Positions 1,059 through 45,826 of a stretch of DNA of 64,000 bases are shown here, piece by piece (within the stretch, counting starts at the first letter, position 1; each line of letters opens with the position of its first letter). The stretch comes from an uncultured Candidatus Poseidoniales archaeon (GTDB lineage Archaea > Thermoplasmatota > Poseidoniia > Poseidoniales > Poseidoniaceae). Below the pieces are notes generated by a model that made no database searches, was not told the origin of the DNA, and saw only the letters and a program-made list of their open reading frames with translations. The translations under genes were made by a program, and so were the position numbers. The DNA lies in assembly GCA_964013535.1 (NCBI GenBank), contig CAXGWS010000007.1, positions 6,318 through 70,317 of the forward strand, written 5' to 3'.

Positions 1059-4000
1059 ATGCTGAATAAACGATATCCAATAATTCTGATTACCATAATG
1101 CTATGTTCATACCTTGCGCCTTTACTGGATAATGATTCTTTGGAGGACACAGAAGAGGTATCACAGACTAGCGGTCGCTCTACGGCATGTAGTGGTGACA
1201 TTTGCATTTCTGAAGCACTAGTCAACGCCTTTGGCTCCGAAACCGGAGCCGTTGGTCCGAGCGATTGGACCAGTGGAGAATGGGTTGAGTTACACAATTC
1301 CGGCACTGCTACTGTCGACCTATCAACTTGGATAATTGATGACCACTACAACAGACCATTGAGTATGACCACAAATCACGTGGTTTATCCGACCAATGCA
1401 GTAAATCTCGAGCTATCTGCTGGCGACTATATTGTACTCGCAAGAAATGGTGATGGTGGTGGTTGCGGCTACTGTATGAAAAATTCGAATGGCATGGTCA
1501 ACCTAAAGAACCCTGCTGGCACGTTAGTCCACTCAATTTCATGGACGAGCTCGCCGACTGAAGGTACATCGCTGATTGAAGACTCAAACGACCCAATAGC
1601 AGACTGGGTAGAATCCGCCACCCTTTCACCCGGTGAAGCAAATCAGGGTGGAACACCTGTCGGACCAGTCTACTTTGCTGGTGACATTGTAATTAATGAG
1701 GTAATGGCAGATGCATCTCCAAGTTTCGACAATGCTACATACCCCGGTGGAGAATGGGTAGAAATTTACAATCAGGGTGGCAATGATATTGACCTTACCG
1801 GTTGGTACATAACTGATGCCGCAGGCAACATGATTGAATTTGACCAAGACCATTTAATCGGCTATACTGCTGAAACTGATTCACTAATGATAAATTCTGG
1901 AGATATGAGAATTGTTGCAGTTAATGGCTCAACAAATAGCGGTGTATTGAACAACGCTATTGAAAAATTACGGGTTCACTGGCCTAACGGATCAATCGGT
2001 GACGAGGTAAACTGGACCAGTACTGAACCGGGCTTTTCGCTATCGAGGATATCAGGAAGTGATTCTATGTTCATTTCTGCACACCCAACCATCAACATGA
2101 CAAATCTTGCTGGGATGGAATTATTGCCTACACTAACAGGTGATATATTCATTACAGAATATTTGCCATCCACCAATACTAGCGGTGCGTTTCCAAATGG
2201 AAAATGGATTGAGATTGTCAATAATGGTACAACCATAATTGATGTATCAGGTTGGAGTATCACCAATGGCAAAGGCGACATATTGTACTTTGACCCGGGG
2301 ACAATGGTGTTTAACCAATCACATTCAGGAGTTACCGAAGTCAACCCAGGAGAGAGAAGACTTATCTCAATGTCCAACAATTTTGACCTGTATGATTACT
2401 ACGAACACTTAGTTCTAAAAGATTCACAAGGCAGTATAATTGATACCGCATGGCACAGCAACTACTTTGGTGATAATGTATCCATGGTTCGAGACTATGA
2501 CAACTTGGGTCTTGCATGGGTCCCATCTAACTGGATTACCCCCGGTGAGCCAGAACCAGGTACTGAGCCATATGTCGCAGTAGATGTAAAAATCACTGAA
2601 ATCCTGCCAGATAGTGAGGGTTCAGACACCCAATCTTGGCCACTCGGAGAATGGCTTGAAGTATACAATAACGATAGTAGCGCAGTTGATTTGACGGGTT
2701 GGAAGTTAAAGGCGTCAAATAGCAGAAGTTTCACCATTGGCGGGTACAATTTCCCGCTTCAGATAGACGCCGTAATTCAGCCCGGTGACGTTGGATTAAT
2801 CGCATTAAACGGGACCAATTCATTCTATCTGAAACAAACTACAGACATCATTACCTTGGTTGATGCTAATGATGGAATTGTCGACACAGTTGGTTGGAAT
2901 CACTCTTCGGAGAACATGTCATTAATCGCTCCTGGAAGTAGTCATGCTGGATACACGACAACCAGTCCGGCAGGCATTACTGGATGGGTTGAGCCAGCTT
3001 GGCCAACGCCCGGAACAATAAATCCAACATGGCCTGCTTATACAGACTCTAACGACTTGATAATCACTGAATACATGGGCTGGTGTGATGAAGGCGGTAA
3101 CAATTATCATGATTGGGTTGAAATAATGAATAATGGAACTACACCTATCGATTTATTGCGATGGCGAGTAGATACTGACACCAAGCGAATTTTCATCAAT
3201 AATTTAGCTGAAGTTAGTTCCACAGATTCTAAGAGCATTGTAGCCAATCTTACCAAATCGACTATTGTCAATCCAGGGGAGTATGCTTTAATCAGTTTGC
3301 CACGCTCTTTCCTAATGGCCGTTGACGTCATAGATTTGTACAACCCTGATGGCGTTGTTGTGGGAATTTCTAACACTCACGGTGAGGGTTTGACTCCAAA
3401 TACATGTGAATCTTGGATTTCTGATGATGGCACAAATTGGTTTTCAGGAGCATATCCAACACCCGGACAAGCAAACATTCAAGCGACCGATTTTGCAACA
3501 GCACAAGACATTGTGATGACCAGAGTTTCACCATATGACAATGAATTCATTCAAATCAAGAATATTGGAGACAAAGATGCTTTCCTCAATGGCTGGACCA
3601 TAAACATCAATGACGGAACAGTGTATGAATGTACAATAATCAATAATATGTTCTTTGCTCCACACAGCAGCGTTGTGTTTGCTGAAGAATCGGCCATAAC
3701 CGGTAGTGGCGGAATGGCTGATGTAATCGCTACCGATACCAATCTACTGCTCGGGGAGGCAACAACATATCTGAACTTCGATGATATTGGTTGTGCCGAC
3801 TTATACATACCAGACTCCGGTGTCGCAGTCTCCCTGAAAGACGCAAATGGAGAACTTGGTGACACCTTTGTTTTTGACGCCGGACCAGCAAGTCAAGACG
3901 GTTGGAGCAGTGAAACAGTTTCAATACCTTCCTCAAGCGTTGCGGATGATGAATTTGTATTCATTCGAGGCGATGGTTGCTCGTTCCTACCAGACACCGA

Positions 4001-6050
4001 TTCTGCCACCGATTGGAAATATCAGTGGTCGATAACTGGGGGCATGAGCACATTATGCTTGCAAACCGAATTCAGTCAATCAGAAGCGATTGTAGTACCC
4101 ATCGTCGGCCCACAAAATGGTCTGCTTGAACTCAAACAATTTATTGATGAAAGCCAAACTAGTCTAAGAATCCAATTGTACCAGTTGCAAGACGCTCACT
4201 TGGTTCAAGCATTACTAGATGCTCTGCAACGAAATGTTAGTGTTGAACTAATGCTTGACCCAGGTTGCAATAACTGCAACATTTGGTCAGAAACCGATCT
4301 TCAATACAAGAATAACTTTGCCTACACGTTGATTGAAGCTGGTGCAACAGTATACGAATTCAACACAAACAGTAACGAACCTTACCTATATCTCCACAGC
4401 AAAGTTGTGGTCCGTGATACTACAAGTGTATGGATCTCATCTGGCAATTGGAAATCCTCTTCTGTTCCCGCCCCCGGAGTGAGAGGAAATGTTGAATGGA
4501 GTGTTATTATTGATAACTCGGATCTTGCAGAAATGGTAGATCAGCAGTTCAATCTCGATATCCACTGGTCAGAATTGATGACATTGAGTGACTACGATGC
4601 ATACACATTCTATCCACCCACCACCATCGGTGGCGGCGGAATCCAAGCGGCAATTCAAGCCAGCATAAGTGGCGAATTACTGACATGTCCGGAAAATTGT
4701 GTAACAAAAATAACTGATTTCATTCGCTCAGCTGAAGATGAAGTATTGTTGTCTCAGCAAACCCTAGATGTTGATTGGTCATATGGCTGGGGTGACGAAA
4801 ATCCAATCATAACCGCGTTACATGAAGTCGCAAGTCGAGGTGTTGGAGTTCACCTAATCATTAACGGGGCATACCTTGACGATGACGACCAAGAAGTTGT
4901 TGATTTGTTCAATGAAGTTTGGAACGGCAGTGAGGGATTAGATGCATCAGCCATTGTAATGAGTGAGGATGATGATGTGTCAAAATTACACAACAAAGGA
5001 ATAATTGTCGACGGTGAAAGTGTCTTGGTATCATCCATCAACATGGGCAGTTCGGCGATGAATCGAAATCGCGAAATGGGTGTAATAATTCATTCATCAA
5101 TCATTACCCAGTACTACCTTGATGGCTGGCATGATGACTGGAACCGGCTTGATAATGTGACTGATTCAGACCAAGATTCCTTAACCGACAAGTGGGAAGT
5201 TGCCAATGGATTAAACAGAACCAAGCGGATAATGCCCTCTGGAGTTACCGAAGATATGTTCGATTCCGATGGCGACGGAGTCAATAACACCGATGAAAAT
5301 AAACAAGGTAGCCACCCATTATTGGCTGATACTGATGGAGATTGTGCAATTGATTCTGTTGAAATCGCTTGGGCTCAAAGTACTGCTCTCAACTCCAGCA
5401 TTGCCAACGTGGCCATTTACGATGCTTTGAACATGGAGGATGCAGATGGCGATGGCATCAAAGATACCGACAAATATGGTTGCGATTTATCGGCAAGTAC
5501 TGATACACAACAATCTGGTGACGACCAAACAATTGACCCAGATGCAGATGATGATGGCGACGGGATAGCCAATAAGAACGACTTATGCCCTGATACTATA
5601 GCTGGCGGTTTAACCGATCTTGACGGATGTTCGAGCGACCAACTGGGTGACCAAGCAGAGGCTAGTGATGGCAAGAAAGACACCACTGGTTCAAACACTA
5701 TGTTAGTCATTATGTTGGTTGCCGCAATATTTACTGCAGGTGCATTCCTTATTCTCAAACAACTTGAATCAAAAGCAAGCCAGGCCAAAGATTTGGTTAG
5801 TTTGGAAGAACAAGAAATGATGCTGGTAGAAAATTCCGAGGCTGTTGACACCGAGGAGTGGGCAATGCCGGTTCTAGATGGCAGCAGTACAAGTAGCGGA
5901 GATGATGCCGCATCTAGCGAGATTTCAGCAGAAGATATGGCAAAATTCCCCGGTTGGGGAATAGATGTGGTTCAACGCTACATCGATAGCGGTTGGACAA
6001 TAGAGCAACTTGCTGAATACTATCAAGAACAGTTGCAGGACAATCAATAA
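1059..6050 (+). CDS. Giant membrane-anchored surface protein: N-terminal signal/anchor, six lamin-tail-domain (LTD) repeats, tandem HKD/PLD phosphodiesterase domains, thrombospondin-type-3-like Ca-binding repeats, C-terminal TM helix and acidic cytoplasmic tail.
   Basis: 1663-aa ORF with ATG start. Six LTD signatures: GEWVELHNSG..VDLSTW, GEWVEIYNQG..IDLTGW, GKWIEIVNNG..IDVSGW, GEWLEVYNND..VDLTGW, HDWVEIMNNG..IDLLRW, NEFIQIKNIG..FLNGW. Two HxK(x)4D motifs: HSKVVVRD..ISSGNW from 4395 and HNKGIIVD..VSSINMG from 4989. DSDGDG/DTDGD/DADGDG repeats. TM helix MLVIMLVAAIFTAGAFLIL at 5700-5765. Confidence 0.9.
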   Translation: MLNKRYPIILITIMLCSYLAPLLDNDSLEDTEEVSQTSGRSTACSGDICISEALVNAFGSETGAVGPSDWTSGEWVELHNSGTATVDLSTWIIDDHYNRPLSMTTNHVVYPTNAVNLELSAGDYIVLARNGDGGGCGYCMKNSNGMVNLKNPAGTLVHSISWTSSPTEGTSLIEDSNDPIADWVESATLSPGEANQGGTPVGPVYFAGDIVINEVMADASPSFDNATYPGGEWVEIYNQGGNDIDLTGWYITDAAGNMIEFDQDHLIGYTAETDSLMINSGDMRIVAVNGSTNSGVLNNAIEKLRVHWPNGSIGDEVNWTSTEPGFSLSRISGSDSMFISAHPTINMTNLAGMELLPTLTGDIFITEYLPSTNTSGAFPNGKWIEIVNNGTTIIDVSGWSITNGKGDILYFDPGTMVFNQSHSGVTEVNPGERRLISMSNNFDLYDYYEHLVLKDSQGSIIDTAWHSNYFGDNVSMVRDYDNLGLAWVPSNWITPGEPEPGTEPYVAVDVKITEILPDSEGSDTQSWPLGEWLEVYNNDSSAVDLTGWKLKASNSRSFTIGGYNFPLQIDAVIQPGDVGLIALNGTNSFYLKQTTDIITLVDANDGIVDTVGWNHSSENMSLIAPGSSHAGYTTTSPAGITGWVEPAWPTPGTINPTWPAYTDSNDLIITEYMGWCDEGGNNYHDWVEIMNNGTTPIDLLRWRVDTDTKRIFINNLAEVSSTDSKSIVANLTKSTIVNPGEYALISLPRSFLMAVDVIDLYNPDGVVVGISNTHGEGLTPNTCESWISDDGTNWFSGAYPTPGQANIQATDFATAQDIVMTRVSPYDNEFIQIKNIGDKDAFLNGWTININDGTVYECTIINNMFFAPHSSVVFAEESAITGSGGMADVIATDTNLLLGEATTYLNFDDIGCADLYIPDSGVAVSLKDANGELGDTFVFDAGPASQDGWSSETVSIPSSSVADDEFVFIRGDGCSFLPDTDSATDWKYQWSITGGMSTLCLQTEFSQSEAIVVPIVGPQNGLLELKQFIDESQTSLRIQLYQLQDAHLVQALLDALQRNVSVELMLDPGCNNCNIWSETDLQYKNNFAYTLIEAGATVYEFNTNSNEPYLYLHSKVVVRDTTSVWISSGNWKSSSVPAPGVRGNVEWSVIIDNSDLAEMVDQQFNLDIHWSELMTLSDYDAYTFYPPTTIGGGGIQAAIQASISGELLTCPENCVTKITDFIRSAEDEVLLSQQTLDVDWSYGWGDENPIITALHEVASRGVGVHLIINGAYLDDDDQEVVDLFNEVWNGSEGLDASAIVMSEDDDVSKLHNKGIIVDGESVLVSSINMGSSAMNRNREMGVIIHSSIITQYYLDGWHDDWNRLDNVTDSDQDSLTDKWEVANGLNRTKRIMPSGVTEDMFDSDGDGVNNTDENKQGSHPLLADTDGDCAIDSVEIAWAQSTALNSSIANVAIYDALNMEDADGDGIKDTDKYGCDLSASTDTQQSGDDQTIDPDADDDGDGIANKNDLCPDTIAGGLTDLDGCSSDQLGDQAEASDGKKDTTGSNTMLVIMLVAAIFTAGAFLILKQLESKASQAKDLVSLEEQEMMLVENSEAVDTEEWAMPVLDGSSTSSGDDAASSEISAEDMAKFPGWGIDVVQRYIDSGWTIEQLAEYYQEQLQDNQ

Positions 6051-39966: not shown

Positions 39967-40416
39967 CTACCACTCTCTAAATCCTTGAGAGGATTGGCGG
40001 TCGGCTATCACGTGAATTTTAATGGTATTTCCATCAATAATTATTGCATCCTCAGCAGTCAAACCGGGACATTCCTGTTTAGTTTGTTGCCAATTTCGAT
40101 CAGTAGCGAGGTTTTCGGCCCACCAGGGATATGCTGCACATTGTTGAGGGCGATTTTGATAGATTTGACAGGTTTTCTCCTCGCTAAGATAGATACAGAT
40201 TCCATCCGATTCTCGGCTTTTCAAAATATACCTACCGTCCAAAGTACGTTGACAATCCCTTTCTAACCAATCGGGAACTGAAAGATTCATGCTCGAAGCA
40301 ATTCTCTTAGCGTCATGCTTCGAAAGGTAAACGATGCCTCCTGGCTCATCACAGCACTTACCGCAACCTGTTTGACACGCGAATTTTACTCCGCTACTCC
40401 ACCAAGGATGCCTCAT
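39967..40416 (-). CDS. YkgJ-family (CxxCxxCC / UPF0153) Zn/Fe-chelating cysteine-cluster protein
   Basis: 149 aa. N-terminal CQTGCGKCC cluster plus downstream Cys residues (CIYL, CQIY, CAAYP) typical of the family. The start overlaps the upstream stop (ATGA). Confidence 0.75.
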   Translation of the reverse strand: MRHPWWSSGVKFACQTGCGKCCDEPGGIVYLSKHDAKRIASSMNLSVPDWLERDCQRTLDGRYILKSRESDGICIYLSEEKTCQIYQNRPQQCAAYPWWAENLATDRNWQQTKQECPGLTAEDAIIIDGNTIKIHVIADRQSSQGFREW

Positions 40417-42428
40417 TCTTCCTCACCACTGAGGACCACTGCAACCGGTGTCAATGTAGATGTCTGTTTAACACCCTCTGGATGTGGTTCAAGAACACCT
40501 TCAATAGGAATCTTAACCGATTCATCAATCAATAAATCATCCACTGAAACTTGAGACTCATTAACATCCCATTCTCCATCAGGGACAAAACTTTCCAGTG
40601 TATCGGTTATATCGTCGTCCAAAAATTCAGGAAGTTCAGCACGATTAGGGTCTATGGTGACCAACTCATGCTCAAGTGCTCTTAGTTCATCGGCAATTCC
40701 GATCAATCCTTCCATAGATGCATCTGAAGTCCTGTTTGCAAGGTCAAGCAATCGCGCTTCAAGATCGACTAACTGCCCAGTTTCTGCTGATATAGTTTGG
40801 TTGGATTGGTCGATTTTATTATCAATTCCAACATCTAATTCGGTCAAAATATCTGCCGCAAGAGTATGATCCTTCTGAATAATTCTTGTCATTTTAGCAA
40901 CCAAATGTTTGTCTCGGTCGTTAATGTCTATCACAGATGGAGCCTCAGGGGTTAAATCATCAAGTGTGGTTCGAATATGTGATTCAACAAAATCAGTTTC
41001 TACCTCACTTAACGCAGCAATATCGAGTTCAGGGGGCTCATAATCATCTGATAGTTCTGGCAATTCCGAGTTAATCTCGATGCCTCCAAGATGATTATCG
41101 CTGTAAACAACATCGACTACTGAGTTAATCAATCTAGTCGCAATATCCTCGACACTCTCGCTTGCCAGTTCCGCCGCTACTTCTTCTTCATCAGACTGAA
41201 TGTCATTGATTAATTTGTAAACATCAATTGAATCTATTAGTTGTGCGCCGTGGTTTATTGCTGACTCCACTTTATCCATAGCATTCTTTGTATTCCGCCA
41301 GCCTACTTCTCCTGATGTAACCAGTAGTGCCAGTTGTTCATCACTCAGCACGATACTTTTCTGCATCGCCAGGCGTCGAGCATACAATAACAAACTACCT
41401 GCGCCAACTGGATTGAGCATTGTCTTAACTCCACTTCTCAATAAGTCCCATATCTTTGAAGCAGGCCAATTATCTACTGAGTTAGTACAAGTAACTACAA
41501 CGTGAATATTCAAATTCAAAGCCGTATCTACCATCCTACCAATGTGATTCATCACATCATCATCAGCTAAATGTTCATCAATATCGTCAATCAAAAGAAC
41601 CGAGGCGTGGGCAAAAACGTCTGTCCAACTGAGATTGTTACTCAACACTTTAGGTAATTCTTCTCCCCGAACAAAGAATACAGTCTGGTCTGCCCGAAGC
41701 AATATTGACTGGCCAATTGCATTCAATAGATGTGATTTGCCGGTTCCAGAATCACCTATAATTATCAAAGGATTTAGTGATTGTTGGGTAAAATCAACAA
41801 CTTGTTCGGCCAGTTGAGTCGCACGCTTATTTTCAGAAACAGTACACCAAGTCTTGAATGTATTATGAGTACTGAAAGGGAGTTCCTTTGGCCAATCCAC
41901 AACTACAGGTATGTGAGTCGAATGGTGGTGTGTTATCGATGCGGGTGGTTCGCTAAGATGATGCTGTTTATCATCGATTTCCCTAGTACCGGAAACAACA
42001 CTACTCCAAATTGGAGTACCATCTGATTCAAAACCAAAGAAGGTATTTTCAGACATATTTGCATCACTTGAAATCTTATTCAAGGTTCGTTCTCGAAGAT
42101 TTTTTAGTCGCTGTGCCACGAGGGTAGATACGTCGTTATTCGAATCCCCAACCGAAATTTTTGGTTGGTAATTTTCAGATTCTTGACCTAGTACCCCATC
42201 AGCGAGCAGGTCGTATGTTGGCCGATTTTTGACTCCAACCCTCGCAAGAAGCGGTTTTCGATTTAGAGCTAACTCGGTTTTACCCGTCATACGGGCGAGT
42301 TTTGACCTCGGCTGAACCTGACTACGACTATCCTGATGCTTGGGGAGAGAACCTGACTTGTCTTTGGAATTAACATGTCTTTCAGCGTTTTTTATTGCGC
42401 TTAACAATTTATTCCTTCGGGCGTTCAT
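40413..42428 (-). CDS. DnaA/Hda-like AAA+ ATPase flanked by a basic low-complexity N-terminus and a long acidic C-terminal tail
   Basis: 671 aa. HNTFKTW..SENKRATQLAEQV, Walker A NPLIIIGDSGTGKSHLLNAIG (41733-41756), Walker B VLLIDDID, sensor-1-like VVVTCTNS, LLRSGVKTML and GWRNTKNAMDKVESAI. No DNA-binding domain IV. Ends ..SGEEE. Confidence 0.8.
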   Translation of the reverse strand: MNARRNKLLSAIKNAERHVNSKDKSGSLPKHQDSRSQVQPRSKLARMTGKTELALNRKPLLARVGVKNRPTYDLLADGVLGQESENYQPKISVGDSNNDVSTLVAQRLKNLRERTLNKISSDANMSENTFFGFESDGTPIWSSVVSGTREIDDKQHHLSEPPASITHHHSTHIPVVVDWPKELPFSTHNTFKTWCTVSENKRATQLAEQVVDFTQQSLNPLIIIGDSGTGKSHLLNAIGQSILLRADQTVFFVRGEELPKVLSNNLSWTDVFAHASVLLIDDIDEHLADDDVMNHIGRMVDTALNLNIHVVVTCTNSVDNWPASKIWDLLRSGVKTMLNPVGAGSLLLYARRLAMQKSIVLSDEQLALLVTSGEVGWRNTKNAMDKVESAINHGAQLIDSIDVYKLINDIQSDEEEVAAELASESVEDIATRLINSVVDVVYSDNHLGGIEINSELPELSDDYEPPELDIAALSEVETDFVESHIRTTLDDLTPEAPSVIDINDRDKHLVAKMTRIIQKDHTLAADILTELDVGIDNKIDQSNQTISAETGQLVDLEARLLDLANRTSDASMEGLIGIADELRALEHELVTIDPNRAELPEFLDDDITDTLESFVPDGEWDVNESQVSVDDLLIDESVKIPIEGVLEPHPEGVKQTSTLTPVAVVLSGEEE

Positions 42429-44383
42429 TGGTCATCCCCCTCGTAAGAAATAAGCTCTTCATCACTGATTGAGGATTTCGTTTGATATTCTGTCGACCAT
42501 TTTTGATAATTCTTATCGACATCAATGACACTTTGCCCTCTTGATGCAGATTCTCTTTGACGGCGTTTTGAAATGTCTCCTTTGGCGATATCACTCGATG
42601 AATGCACTATTGTATCGACATTGATTTTCCGATTAACCGGTAAATTCCTCTTAGTTTTTACAACAGGTAATTCACTAGCAGATGATTGAGATTTCTGATT
42701 TAATGCTTGCTTGAGTGAACGGCTATTGTTGGAATTTGTACTTTTGAGCATGCTCTGCAAAGCTGCATCCATCTTCTCTGCGCGAGTTGTTAAATTAGTG
42801 TCAATGGCCTGTCTTAGAGAGCGTATTTTGGTTACATTTCCAATCTCAGGAAGTATCACATCTCGATTAATTGCTGTTGCCGAACCTTTAGCCATTCCGT
42901 AATTATCTACACCGGTTCTACGTGATTTTTTGGCTCGCTTTATGCGTATTGCCGCACGTGGTGATTTTGTTTTATGCAATGGCTCAATTTGTTTTGATTC
43001 CTTAATCGCTAATTTTGGTTTAGATTTTGCAGGCGTTTCAATAATTTCTGGATTATTAGCAACTGAATTGATTGAAGCAGAAAATGCAGTCTCCATCAAA
43101 TTTGAAACCAAGTTAGTATCCTCTACGAGTTGGCCATCCTGTGTGATAATTTCGGGCATTATGTCAGTCGGTGCTTGCCATTCATCAACGACTTGGTTAA
43201 GAATTTCCTTGGCTTCTGTCAAATCTTCCTCAGCGACGCTTGCCGCCCCGCCAAACATAGCTTCGTCGCCCGTATGAGCGATGTTTTCGGCAGTCTTAGC
43301 GAAACTAATTTGCTGCTGAATCCACGATAACTCCTCATCTGATAATTCCATACAAATAGGATGGTCGAGGACTGACTCACTATCCATAACCAAATTCTCA
43401 AGATACTGAGGGGAAATTAATTCGAACTCCCTACTGAATGACCGCCTTTCTCGTGTATTCATAAGTTCAAGATTACAATGGACGAGCAGCAAATGATCTG
43501 CTAGTCTCACTTCATCGATAAGGCTCCTAAACATGTTAATTATTGATTTGAATTCATTGGTCGCCAACAGGTAATCCAGGCCGGAAAACACCACAACAGC
43601 TTGCTTATTAGCCCACAAAAAATCCTTTAATTTCTTTTGAATCAAGGAAGGATCTGGTAGAACATTAATGTCGCTGACTTGCGATGAAATCTTGATGCAA
43701 GATGAGTTCGGAATATCATAATCGTTAGTCAGCATTCTTGGTTCACTGCGTGAGAAGACTATCAATGGTCTGCCATGAGTTGCTAAAATGCCTGCCAAAT
43801 TGAACAAAGTTTCAGAACTGCTAGAATCAACTAACAATGTGTCGCCATAGTTTAGATACTTCTCACCTAAGTCAAATTTTTGCAATTTTGCCTTGGTAAG
43901 TTGCCTAATATATTCAGGTGCTTCAACAATAACTTCTTGTTCAGGGAGTCTTGCTTCCCTACGCCAACTACGAGTATTAAGTTGAACATAATTCCACCAG
44001 TCTGCCTTTGCTTGGTCACTTTGTTGATCTTCTGTACTGAGGGAAAAGTCAGGATATAAGTTGGTAATACGAATGATATCTTCATCCGGCAGTTCTACGA
44101 GGGAAATCAAGGCATCAAGGGCTGTCGAATCTCGCTCAATCTCTAACAAAGCCTCAAGGCCACCGCGAATTATATCTGTTTCATGTATTGCCAATTTGGG
44201 TATACCATCATGAATTAAAACTTGGCTAACACGCGGGATTAGTTCTTTTGGCCGCCGCTCGATTCTTATGTATCCCGAGATGCCTAAACGCACCATATCT
44301 CCCGATAATTGTGCTAATGCGTCATGCCCGCCGCGTCGTACTTCAATAACTACGCCTTGTGGCAATTCGACCAAAATTCTCAC
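42425..44383 (-). CDS. Protein with an N-terminal globular module, a DUF835 / inactivated KaiC-like domain and a long basic low-complexity C-terminal half
   Basis: 652 aa, GTG start. Residues about 175-325 fit the DUF835 pattern (GRPLIVFSRSEP.., VVVFSGLDYLLATNEF.., LLLVHCNLELMNTRERRSFSREFELI). The P-loop position is degenerate (GDTLLVDSSSSETL). K/S/N/R-rich tail. Confidence 0.75.
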   Translation of the reverse strand: MRILVELPQGVVIEVRRGGHDALAQLSGDMVRLGISGYIRIERRPKELIPRVSQVLIHDGIPKLAIHETDIIRGGLEALLEIERDSTALDALISLVELPDEDIIRITNLYPDFSLSTEDQQSDQAKADWWNYVQLNTRSWRREARLPEQEVIVEAPEYIRQLTKAKLQKFDLGEKYLNYGDTLLVDSSSSETLFNLAGILATHGRPLIVFSRSEPRMLTNDYDIPNSSCIKISSQVSDINVLPDPSLIQKKLKDFLWANKQAVVVFSGLDYLLATNEFKSIINMFRSLIDEVRLADHLLLVHCNLELMNTRERRSFSREFELISPQYLENLVMDSESVLDHPICMELSDEELSWIQQQISFAKTAENIAHTGDEAMFGGAASVAEEDLTEAKEILNQVVDEWQAPTDIMPEIITQDGQLVEDTNLVSNLMETAFSASINSVANNPEIIETPAKSKPKLAIKESKQIEPLHKTKSPRAAIRIKRAKKSRRTGVDNYGMAKGSATAINRDVILPEIGNVTKIRSLRQAIDTNLTTRAEKMDAALQSMLKSTNSNNSRSLKQALNQKSQSSASELPVVKTKRNLPVNRKINVDTIVHSSSDIAKGDISKRRQRESASRGQSVIDVDKNYQKWSTEYQTKSSISDEELISYEGDDQ

Positions 44384-44522: not shown

Positions 44523-45152
44523 ATGGCGGCTCCTAAAGGTCTGATTGCTTTCAATGAGTTAGACCTATGTGGACCATACAAACGACAGTGGCTAATTATC
44601 ATCGCTTCAGTGGGGTTATTGGGCATAATTGGGCCTGCTATATCATTGCTTTTTGGACTCAGTGTGTTACTAATTCCAACCATGATAGTTTTGGCCGGAT
44701 TGATATTCATATTCTTTGGATTTGATAGCTGGTCACTAATCAATACACCACTGGCAGTAAATATGAATCATCCATTTGTCGATGATGAACCAATCGGTAA
44801 AGCAGTTGTTCAGATTAGAGATTCTAGCGGTAATTGGCAAGAACTTGGCCAGTACAGAGTACGCATTGTCAAAGATGAATTGGTCGGAGGTTACAATTTG
44901 GTCGAGGATAATGATGATTATCGATTGATTGCACATTTGTCTAAATCATCGAACAAAGCCAGAATTATGAAACAAATTATCATTGTCAATCAAGCATTGA
45001 GTTTGCGCGATGTCGTTAACGGCGACATAGACCCAATCGAAGACGCACGAGCAAGAGAAAGGATGGATTATGGCCTGCTAGAAAGAGATTGGTTACAAGA
45101 TGAAGAATTAGAAATTGAAGGTCCGCTGGCTAAATTCCTCAACAAAGAATGA
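44523..45152 (+). CDS. Hypothetical membrane-anchored protein (2 TM helices plus a soluble domain)
   Basis: 209-aa ORF with ATG start. AT-rich CTTAATTCTTTA sits about 27 nt upstream. No family recognised. Confidence 0.5.
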   Translation: MAAPKGLIAFNELDLCGPYKRQWLIIIASVGLLGIIGPAISLLFGLSVLLIPTMIVLAGLIFIFFGFDSWSLINTPLAVNMNHPFVDDEPIGKAVVQIRDSSGNWQELGQYRVRIVKDELVGGYNLVEDNDDYRLIAHLSKSSNKARIMKQIIIVNQALSLRDVVNGDIDPIEDARARERMDYGLLERDWLQDEELEIEGPLAKFLNKE

Positions 45153-45208: not shown

Positions 45209-45826
45209 GTGTCTACCTCTGGAAATTGGAGTTCAGTGATTGGTTCCATGTCGGAGAACCATCAAGAAACCCTCCTTGGCGCATCACTTTCACGAAAGTT
45301 TGCAAAACTCCCGCTATGGTTATCTCATCCATCTAATATTGGCGGATTTTACGGTTTTTTAATTGCCATAGCCTTGATTTTACCATACAGATTTGCTGGC
45401 GAGGATAACTCCGGTTGGTTGAACGATTGGGCACTCCATTGTGCTTTACTAATCGCTGCCTGTTTTTTCCTCGGCCTTTGCTCAACGTTGATTACGGCTA
45501 TTTCAGGAAGATTTCCAGTTACTCCCCCACGAACAATACTTTACCCTATGCCGTTTATCGGTCTAGCCTTATTATCAATAAACAGGACTGACATTATAGC
45601 AATTTATCCGTTTTTATCTTGGACTCTGATTCTCCTTCCTGGCCCCCTTTATGTGCATTTATCCTGGGCCCCAAGATGGCGCTTGCTGTGCATGATTGAC
45701 GATGGAAAGAATCCTTTTGATGGACTTGAGAATGTCGAAGAGGAAATCAAAGACTACGCTAAACCAACGAGTATTGATTCTGAAATTGAATCAGTAGTTG
45801 ATGATTTTGAGACCGCTGAAGAGTAA
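45209..45826 (+). CDS. Hypothetical polytopic membrane protein
   Basis: 205-aa ORF from GTG 45209 (alternative ATG 45248). 4-5 hydrophobic helices and an acidic tail ending ..ETAEE. Confidence 0.5.
   Translation: MSTSGNWSSVIGSMSENHQETLLGASLSRKFAKLPLWLSHPSNIGGFYGFLIAIALILPYRFAGEDNSGWLNDWALHCALLIAACFFLGLCSTLITAISGRFPVTPPRTILYPMPFIGLALLSINRTDIIAIYPFLSWTLILLPGPLYVHLSWAPRWRLLCMIDDGKNPFDGLENVEEEIKDYAKPTSIDSEIESVVDDFETAEE

Follow-up and report, generated by a model that had tools for sequence, protein, structure and literature searches.

A DnaA-type AAA+ protein and an inactivated KaiC-like partner encoded as a pair in Poseidoniales

Archaea employ Orc1/Cdc6 proteins as their replication initiators, with DnaA/Hda modules being characteristically bacterial and DnaA-type AAA+ modules indeed a hallmark of bacterial replication. 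What, then, is a DnaA-type AAA+ module doing in an archaeon, encoded directly downstream of an inactivated relative of KaiC? The question is raised by a stretch of 64,000 nucleotides (nt), here 'the window', from an uncultured Candidatus Poseidoniales archaeon (assembly GCA_964013535.1, contig CAXGWS010000007.1, positions 6,318 to 70,317), within which three minus-strand genes, genes 1, 2, and 3, follow one another. An original prediction, made from the letters of the DNA, saw in these one coupled unit of three as well as an ATP-driven module, that is, an active AAA+ protein with an inactive partner. The answer that we favor, at a probability of roughly 0.4, is that genes 1 and 2 encode a Poseidoniales-specific hetero-oligomeric scaffold that works independently of nucleotide hydrolysis. 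What is new here is the architecture and the pairing of known kinds, i.e., of a DnaA-type AAA+ module with an inactivated KaiC domain (DUF835); no literature describing a pairing of DnaA-type and DUF835 proteins was found. The three genes, with lengths in amino acids (aa), are as follows.

42425-44383, minus strand: gene 1 (652 aa), an open reading frame (ORF) with a Pfam DUF835 match
40413-42428, minus strand: gene 2 (671 aa), an ORF with Pfam and NCBIfam matches, homologues, and an AlphaFold2 (AF2) model
39967-40416, minus strand: gene 3 (149 aa), a CxxCxxCC (YkgJ/UPF0153-type) Cys-cluster protein, by Pfam match

An invariant pair and its accessory neighbor

All three ORFs, along with both of their stop/start overlaps, can be read directly in the sequence where the original prediction had placed them. 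At the gene 1/gene 2 junction there is an ATGA overlap at 42425-42428 (GACCAATGAACGCC), with the gene 1 end, GAC CAA TGA, overlapping the gene 2 start, ATG AAC. The gene 2/gene 3 junction has an ATGA overlap as well, at 40413-40416 (GAAGAATGAGGCAT), where the gene 2 end, GAA GAA TGA, overlaps the gene 3 start, ATG AGG. Genes 1 and 2 are translationally coupled via their overlap, and a start/stop overlap or near-overlap of the two is present in nearly all lineages. The listed start of gene 1 is a GTG at 44383 (MRILVELPQG). An alternative start, the TTG at 44374 (giving MVELPQG), is preceded by a Shine-Dalgarno-like stretch, GGGGTGA, and may be the true one, as MVELPQG opens many orthologues.

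Word-based and exhaustive profile searches found the gene 2 family only in metagenome-assembled genomes (MAGs) of Poseidoniales or Thermoplasmatota, with no member outside of the Poseidoniales syntenic block in the exhaustive profile search, and all 172 gene 1 homologues are of Poseidoniales type. The two families, that is, share the same narrow taxonomic range, and in the searches run they were never found apart. A scan of GTDB using our alignment A1 found relatives encoded by 231 species genomes, of which the best 80 are Poseidoniales, Poseidoniaceae, or Poseidonia, with the original MG-II chromosome, CM001443, among them. Given orthologues of genes 1 and 2 that are conserved recognizably down to ~25% identity, plus a relative in 231 species genomes, the feature is not a chance one. 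NCBI names for its members are automatic, i.e., 'DnaA/Hda family protein', 'AAA family ATPase', and 'DUF835 domain-containing protein'.

Complete gene 1-2-3 blocks occur also in MAGs labelled 'Rhodobiaceae bacterium' (L083; CALDQY010000035.1) and 'Phycisphaerae bacterium' (L085; NZFX01000059.1), these probably being mis-binned archaeal contigs. A 563-aa metagenomic protein (P0075), which has 61% identity to 38% of gene 2 plus TrkA_C and CitMHS transporter domains, is likewise probably a chimeric assembly or gene call and not a real fusion. A defense-system or phage origin was rejected. PADLOC returned for gene 2 only generic P-loop matches (E 2e-5 or weaker, ~30-110 residues around the P-loop) and for genes 1 and 3 no match, PHROGs returned only a weak DnaC-like similarity, and no viral contigs with relatives were found.

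Every context fetched, including those of members at 21-28% identity, shares a block consisting of aminotransferase, two small membrane proteins, gene 1, gene 2, (gene 3), citrate synthase, and GDPD, with TatC also among the flanking genes of conserved order. Counting here is over the best 80 of the 231 GTDB species genomes. In all 76 loci that could be evaluated, gene 1 is the immediate upstream neighbor of gene 2, on the same strand; these genes do keep together in related genomes, as the original prediction implied. Gene 3 follows downstream, likewise on the same strand, in 75 of the 76. It is inverted, i.e., on the opposite strand, in L003/L004, and it is absent in L086, where citrate synthase comes directly after gene 2. 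Because gene 3 can be inverted or absent, the invariant unit is the gene 1-gene 2 pair and not the trio, and of the predicted unit of three it thus is the first two members that stand. Gene 3 is an accessory neighbor, usually co-transcribed yet dispensable at this position, and no core subunit. As to its kind, a YkgJ-type assignment is sound, with a match to YkgJ/UPF0153 (PF03692) of 41.8 bits versus a cut-off of 23 (E 1.8e-10). The first cysteine spacing among its nine cysteines, however, is CxxxCxxCC rather than the CxxCxxCC originally read there, and its linkage to the pair is not an invariant one.

The pair also co-varies. Pairwise evolutionary distances of genes 1 and 2 correlate with r = 0.92 and, upon controlling for citrate synthase, the partial correlation is 0.72, versus 0.35 and 0.54 for the pairings with gene 3. 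Both genes evolve 4-5 times faster than citrate synthase, and gene 3 evolves 2.5-3.5 times slower than the pair.

The AAA+ core of gene 2 and the decay of its catalytic residues

The features of the gene 2 core are these.

41169-41897, minus strand: AAA+ core plus lid (aa 178-420), by Foldseek, PDB profile search, and motif census
41733-41756, minus strand: Walker A, GDSGTGKS, read in the sequence
41607-41666, minus strand: helix pair like the initiator-specific motif (ISM), from the AF2 model
41577-41600, minus strand: Walker B, VLLIDDID, read in the sequence
41421-41444, minus strand: box VII region, LLRSGVKT, with R331, read in the sequence
41286-41303, minus strand: sensor-2-like GWRNTK (R378), read in the sequence

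The Walker A, Walker B, box VII, and sensor-2-like motifs, together with VVVTCTNS, stand where the original prediction had quoted them. What do they belong to? In Pfam, gene 2 matches Bac_DnaA (PF00308) over aa 187-316 (E 4e-13; 50.3 bits versus a gathering cut-off of 23), a match found also in divergent orthologues. The NCBIfam ranking is headed by DnaA (2.7e-19), followed by Hda, IstB, and DnaC, with all of these far under equivalog cut-offs, i.e., 69.5 bits versus 343.9 for the DnaA equivalog, TIGR00362, and 33.9 versus 194.8 for Hda, TIGR03420. A PDB search employing a 43-sequence family profile gave B. subtilis DnaA at 6.9e-16, Thermotoga and Aquifex DnaA at ~2e-9, DnaC at 1e-4, and IstB at 0.06. 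The AF2 model has a predicted local distance difference test score (pLDDT) of 80-90 across aa 178-420, and the best Foldseek match of this core is DnaA domain III (8bv3_A, E 3e-12, target template-modeling score, TM, 0.81; 2z4r, 0.84). Hda matches have target TMs of 0.66-0.78, and S. solfataricus Orc1/Cdc6 comes in at rank 36, with 0.45. For Orc1/Cdc6 there was no Pfam match, nor a PDB-profile match at E<1. DnaA domain IV (Bac_DnaA_C) gave no Pfam match, whether the whole protein or just its tail was searched, and, where DnaA has that domain, the gene 2 tail as modeled consists of helices and a coiled coil. NCBIfam, PDB profile, AF2/Foldseek, and domain IV absence, as four independent lines, all concur, that is, the gene 2 core is DnaA-domain-III-like. 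Two claims of the original prediction thereby hold up, membership in a DnaA/Hda clade rather than Orc1/Cdc6 and the lack of domain IV.

DnaA domain III and Hda thus are the best match of this core by both sequence and structure. Within the window's clade the likeness takes in Walker A and B, the box VII-region Arg, and the sensor-2-like Arg. A candidate for a further shared element is the ISM-like pair, predicted as short helices at aa 255-262 and 268-274, with an invariant W268, between strand 2 and Walker B in the AF2 model. Hda is like gene 2 also in being without domain IV. Gene 2 nevertheless is not simply a DnaA. It is without domain I as well as domain IV, and its 671 aa include a basic N-region of 177 aa and an acidic tail of 250 aa that contains a coiled coil. 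Nor is it an Hda, which is a single domain of ~230 aa with an N-terminal clamp-binding motif. Different from both are a box VII region that is four residues shorter, a Walker A Lys lost in two thirds of the family's species, and a host archaeon already in possession of Orc1/Cdc6.

Orc1/Cdc6 falls within the same broad AAA+ initiator clade; gene 2, however, is without its C-terminal winged helix and without a profile match to it. With the DnaC/DnaI-DnaB and IstB systems gene 2 shares a weak sequence similarity to DnaC and IstB along with the placement of an initiator-clade AAA+ protein beside a RecA-fold partner. Here, though, that partner is a DUF835 pseudo-ATPase and no helicase, lacking a DnaB N-domain. 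The likeness to DnaC-DnaB is one of analogy alone, and the transposase context of IstB is missing from the locus. No winged helix was found in gene 2, and no conserved PIP (PCNA-interacting protein) box or PIP-like motif in the family alignments. The B-motif of DnaA, for binding single-stranded DNA, has a basic residue following Walker B, which we take to be at the E. coli R245 position. In gene 2 this position is acidic or neutral, with ADDD in the window and ESxD or ENK in others.

Might gene 2 instead stand in for the archaeal initiator? No Orc1/Cdc6 candidate was found in the 64-kb window. In the literature on Marine Group II (MGII), however, an Orc1/Cdc6-2 has been placed, and a separate acquisition by MGII of bacterial gyrase noted (Raymann et al. 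2014, PMC3914693), and gene 2 as a replacement was rejected. As MGII has its own Orc1/Cdc6, the DnaA-like protein is an addition to the archaeal initiator.

The gene 2 of the window has a complete motif set, i.e., GDSGTGKS, LLIDDID, R331, and GWR378. Across 63 species the same cannot be said. The Walker A lysine position, which is in a reliably aligned column (context ...TG[K/R/C]SHLL...), is occupied by Lys in 21 species and by Arg in 30, with Cys in a further 9 and Thr, Ile, or Gly in the last 3; the lysine is gone from 42 of the 63. The window being of the Lys type, CM001443 is of the Arg type and Poseidonia of the Cys type. Among 99 cluster representatives the position is K in 67, R in 29, C in 2, and T in 1. 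The first P-loop glycine is also gone in the Cys, Thr, and Ile classes. Parsimony on neighbor-joining trees requires six changes, from a Lys root, given the citrate synthase plus gene 3 tree and seven given the gene 2 tree. Other catalytic positions go along with this one: R331 is Arg in 21 of 21 Lys-class species and Lys, Leu, or Ser in 10 of the 42 non-Lys species, and R378, at the sensor-2 position, is intact in all Lys-class species and decays in non-Lys classes only. Because the Walker A Lys is missing from 42 of 63 species, the order-wide mechanism would not be canonical ATP hydrolysis; a function common to the whole order cannot rest on it. The AAA+ module may still be an ATP-dependent switch in the clade of the window itself. 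An ATP-driven, active AAA+ protein thus is a description that suits at most this clade, with its full motif set, and not the two thirds of species that are without the lysine.

The exhaustive gene 2 search turned up, in addition, bacterial proteins, ~650 aa in length and mostly from soil metagenomes, in which two Bac_DnaA AAA+ domains stand in tandem (loci L012:1562-11959, L013:1640-6962, and L104-L172, e.g., L104:5920-12517). Their operons begin with DUF4388/PatA_N-TPR, TPR/Roadblock, two Roadblock genes, an Arf-like small GTPase, and the tandem-DnaA protein, and continue with 2xPatA_N-TPR followed by CheR-CheD-CheB-AAA_16-CheW. Of PatA_N-seeded loci of at least 9 kb, 25 of 25 have a DnaA-type ORF, which mostly encodes two AAA+ domains. 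The tandem-DnaA protein looks like a DnaA-derived ATPase of an MglA/MglB-like polarity or chemosensory system. It resembles gene 2 in that its modules derive from DnaA domain III, are without domain IV, and occur in an evidently non-replication context, and it differs in having two AAA+ domains per protein, bacterial hosts, and other partners. Gene 2 as a sister of this family was rejected, at no more than 79 bits per tandem domain versus ~85-92 bits for canonical DnaA. As tandem-DnaA proteins sit in GTPase/Roadblock/Che operons, DnaA-type AAA+ modules are used also outside of replication. The operon is a precedent for such use, with no evidence of homology to the Poseidoniales pair.

The KaiC-like partner, conserved outer regions, and neighbors

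Beyond the gene 2 core, the features of the pair are the following.

44045-44371, minus strand: N-module of gene 1 (aa 5-113), by alignments, VELPQGxxxEVRRGG...GxSGYIRIERRPK...GLEALLEIE
43901-43999, minus strand: linker motif of gene 1 (aa 129-161), by alignments, WWNxVxL..SWRRExRLPExEV.VEAPEYIRQ
43364-43846, minus strand: RecA/KaiC-like DUF835 domain of gene 1 (aa 180-340), by Pfam, AF2, and Foldseek
43310-43366, minus strand: helix motif of gene 1 (aa 340-358), by alignments, DHPICxELSDEELSWIEQQ, conservation 0.77
42917-42964, minus strand: basic motif of gene 1 (aa 474-489), by alignments, PRxAxRIKRxKK
42533-42556, minus strand: RESASRxQ motif of gene 1 (aa 610-617), by alignments
41898-42428, minus strand: N-region of gene 2 (aa 1-177), basic, isoelectric point 9.8, by alignment and charge
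42186-42242, minus strand: N-region block RVGVxxRPTFDLIADGVLG, by alignment
42084-42098, minus strand: N-region block LRERT, by alignment
41994-42041, minus strand: N-region block FFGFExDGTPIWSSVV, by alignment
41919-41930, minus strand: N-region block HHHS, by alignment
40416-41168, minus strand: acidic tail of gene 2 (aa 421-671), net charge -47, by alignment, AF2, and charge
40653-40907, minus strand: predicted coiled-coil hairpin in that tail (aa 508-592), by AF2, pLDDT 74-86

Gene 1 matches DUF835 (PF05763) over aa 194-320 (E 2.7e-18; 66.5 bits versus a gathering cut-off of 33.1). Its α/β domain, confidently modeled over aa 180-340 (pLDDT 85-90), finds KaiC, FlaH, PH0250, RecA, DnaB, and the degenerate N-domain of BcsE in Foldseek, with probabilities of 0.99-1 and modest E-values, and the fold matches T7 gp4 as well. 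The Walker A position is degenerate, reading GDTLLVDSSSSETL at nt 43805-43846, just as had been quoted in the original prediction, with GDTLLVDSSSSE as the residues where GxxxxGK[ST] would be. GK[ST] is absent from this position in all 63 species compared, and the Walker B position is VVVFSGLDYL (nt 43568-43600). The Walker A GxxxxGK[ST], Walker B Asp, and catalytic Glu by which an active KaiC-like ATPase would be recognized thus are not those of gene 1, which on its sequence is an inactivated KaiC/RecA-like (DUF835) protein. Along with the DnaA/Hda-type and YkgJ-type assignments, this one was anticipated, and all three lie above Pfam gathering scores.

DUF835 has been described as an inactivated KaiC domain that serves for output or signaling in archaeal response regulators (Galperin et al. 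2018, PMC5847659). Gene 1 is like these archaeal signaling proteins in scoring above the PF05763 threshold and in having lost Walker A. Described architectures, however, are REC-DUF835 and REC-PAS-PAS-DUF835, and gene 1 instead consists of a unique N-module, DUF835, and a 310-aa, motif-bearing tail. It differs also in being coupled to a DnaA-type protein.

The best-conserved part of gene 1 is not its DUF835 domain (majority-residue fraction 0.50-0.64) but the N-module (0.71-0.82). AF2 is confident of this module over aa 11-110, with a predicted β-α-β-β-β-α-β-α topology (pLDDT ~80). It is without a match in Pfam or in the PDB profile search, and a profile search for other architectures returned same-family fragments only. 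Weak matches to PF09987 (DUF2226, an archaeal family) were seen for 2 of 13 modules, with a best E of 0.0028; no literature on DUF2226 was found. An identity with PATAN/PatA_N (PF14332, DUF4388), an idea that came from inspection by eye and from the bacterial tandem-DnaA operon, was rejected, with hmmscan giving 0 of 13 and hhalign 0.3% using both 3- and 97-sequence profiles.

The original prediction spoke of low complexity in the tails. That description does not survive, as conserved linear motifs are present along with the predicted coiled-coil hairpin. In the gene 1 linker, W129, W130, R142, R145, E150, and E157 are invariant or almost so, as judged by alignments, and this motif persists in the most divergent partners, L007 and L009. 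The helix motif has an invariant H341 and C344, with E350, E351, and W354 invariant or almost. In the basic motif P475 and R483 are invariant, with the motif reading PRRAxRVRxRRP in L007 and L009, and in RESASRxQ it is R610, E611, and Q617 that are invariant and A613 and R615 that are so or almost so. The C-terminus of gene 1 is acidic, of a GGDD type, and is retained by the most divergent partners alongside linker and basic motif. Gene 2, besides its N-region blocks, has the tail blocks VEDIAxRLISSVVDVVYSD, GGIEIxSELPELSDDYxPPELD, LEDLTPEAPSVID, PxGEWNID, LEPHPEG, and a C-terminal SGEEE, of which the terminal ...EEE is invariant. Majority-residue fractions of these tail blocks are 0.71-0.76, the motif blocks of both gene 2 tails are at the conservation level of the AAA+ core and, for the two proteins generally, non-catalytic regions match or exceed the P-loop cores in conservation. 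Charge is segregated along both proteins. The gene 1 tail changes from acidic (aa 341-470, net -17) to basic (aa 471-652, net +15), and charge calculation bears out the oppositely charged tails that had been predicted.

Five orthologues (P0046, P0056, P0066, P0073, and P0074) carry a basic insert, KLIRKPAKRRKKK, in an otherwise acidic gene 2 tail (A1 columns ~660-690). Carriers mostly have Arg in Walker A, and the insert resembles the PRxAxRIKRxKK motif of gene 1.

Neighbors of the locus in the window are housekeeping genes. Diverging from gene 1 are two small predicted membrane proteins, at 44523-45152 (plus strand, 209 aa) and 45209-45826 (plus strand, 205 aa), both without a Pfam match. They are kept in position in every Poseidoniales locus looked at, with a DUF309 gene added in some lineages. 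These two proteins could be part of the gene 1-gene 2 system, and the general synteny of the region blocks a conclusion. Near the window's start, at 1059-6050 (plus strand), is a very large ORF of 1663 aa.

What the pair may be for

As a scaffold, the gene 1 and gene 2 products would be two subunits of one vertically inherited complex, with the P-loop NTPase folds of both serving mainly as assembly platforms rather than as enzymes. The gene 2 AAA+ module would be a bacterial-type DnaA domain III that has lost the DNA-box-binding domain IV, and ATP switching would be optional, i.e., lineage-specific. Partners would be recruited by the gene 1 N-module and linker, by short motifs within long disordered regions, and by the coiled-coil hairpin. 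The basic portions, that is, the gene 2 N-region and the PRxAxRIKRxKK tail of gene 1, would anchor the complex to nucleic acid, with the chromosome as the likeliest target, and the acidic tails would be binding other proteins or folding back onto the basic segments. We infer this chromosome association by analogy because, to our knowledge, all characterized initiator-clade AAA+ proteins have DNA-centered roles.

Speaking for the scaffold are the translational coupling and pairing, the distance correlation, the KaiC/RecA-like fold of gene 1 and its lack of a Walker A, the DnaA-domain-III-like core of gene 2 with its Lys loss and the decay of R331 and R378, the conservation of non-catalytic regions, the segregation of charge, and a housekeeping context. 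Several points weigh against it. Replacement of the Walker A Lys by Arg is no proof that nucleotide binding is lost. Adjacency is weaker evidence than it might seem, as the whole neighborhood is syntenic across Poseidoniales, and a mirror-tree partial correlation can be inflated since both proteins are fast-evolving and their distances saturate. As to DNA specifically, a basic residue is not conserved at what we take to be the B-motif position (ADDD in the window), and no DNA-binding domain was detected in either protein.

How do other explanations fare? Were genes 1 and 2 functionally unlinked, and neighbors merely through high Poseidoniales synteny, then one would expect what indeed is seen for aminotransferase, the two small membrane proteins, citrate synthase, GDPD, and TatC, the order of which is conserved as well. 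The overlapping or almost overlapping stop and start of the two genes across nearly all lineages, the narrow range within which neither family is found apart from the other, and the strong residual co-variation of their distances nonetheless make this very improbable. A true three-component system, with a metal- or redox-sensing or modifying activity of the CxxCxxCC protein controlling the gene 1-gene 2 complex, strikes us as improbable, too. Genes 2 and 3 are ATGA-coupled in the window, gene 3 keeps its place and strand in all but one of the 76 loci, and the gene 2-gene 3 partial correlation is the 0.54 given above, but that gene is inverted in L003/L004, is absent in L086, and evolves at its own, slower rate, with region-wide synteny rendering adjacency weak evidence in any case.

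An ATP-driven replication regulator, DnaA/Hda- or DnaC-like, would have gene 2 forming ATP-dependent head-to-tail oligomers on DNA, acting with or on Orc1/Cdc6-MCM, and gene 1 as a RecA-like partner. The core's nearness to DnaA domain III and Hda, and then DnaC, fits with this, as do the predicted ISM-like helices that separate strand 2 from Walker B and hold the invariant W268, the survival in the window's clade of the Walker A Lys, the DD of Walker B, R331, and R378, a gene 1 fold that matches also DnaB and T7 gp4 (compare DnaC bound to DnaB), and the uptake by MGII of bacterial gyrase through horizontal transfer (PMC3914693). Still, we hold such a regulator to be unlikely. Of 63 species, 42 no longer have the Walker A Lys, and Arg-finger and sensor-2 positions decay in parallel; gene 2 has neither domain IV nor winged helix nor conserved PIP box, and its B-motif position is not basic; replication genes were not found in the neighborhood; and Orc1/Cdc6 is already there in MGII (PMC3914693). 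More doubtful than that regulator is a bolder proposal, which we consider decidedly unlikely: that Poseidoniales acquired a bacterial DnaA-type module and functionally fused it with an archaeal inactivated-KaiC protein, giving a new chromosome-associated regulator of replication or segregation beside Orc1/Cdc6, with the ancestral ATP switch kept in some clades, the window's included, and constitutive assembly in others.

DNA may on the other hand not be involved at all. In a cytoplasmic signaling or cell-organization hub, the inactivated KaiC domain would signal as in KaiC-type networks of archaea and the DnaA-type module would be a nucleotide-state or oligomerization switch, with the bacterial tandem-DnaA ATPases as the analogue. 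Archaeal response regulators use DUF835 for output (PMC5847659), tandem Bac_DnaA proteins occur in bacterial operons with DUF4388/PatA_N, Robl_LC7, Arf-like GTPase, and CheR/D/B/W, and a multi-motif, disordered architecture is compatible with such a role. The gene 2 core, however, has in canonical DnaA (~85-92 bits) a nearer relative than in the tandem domains (at most 79 bits), the gene 1 N-module is not detectably PATAN, and sensor, REC, GTPase, and Che genes were not found near the Poseidoniales pair. A hub thus remains doubtful, if deserving of serious weight.

A DnaA-type module that is fixed across a globally abundant archaeal order, beside Orc1/Cdc6 and always in the company of an inactivated KaiC protein, is unexpected. 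As a scaffold the pair would be a clean natural case of two P-loop folds put to structural use, with a catalytic lysine lost repeatedly and independently. Practical value is limited for now, as Poseidoniales are uncultured. Should the pair act on the chromosome, then a bacterial-derived layer would have been added to archaeal chromosome biology; should it be a signaling hub, then the known uses of DnaA-like and KaiC-like folds would be wider. And were it a new chromosome regulator, it would supply a natural enzyme-to-pseudo-enzyme series within a very abundant group of ocean archaea.

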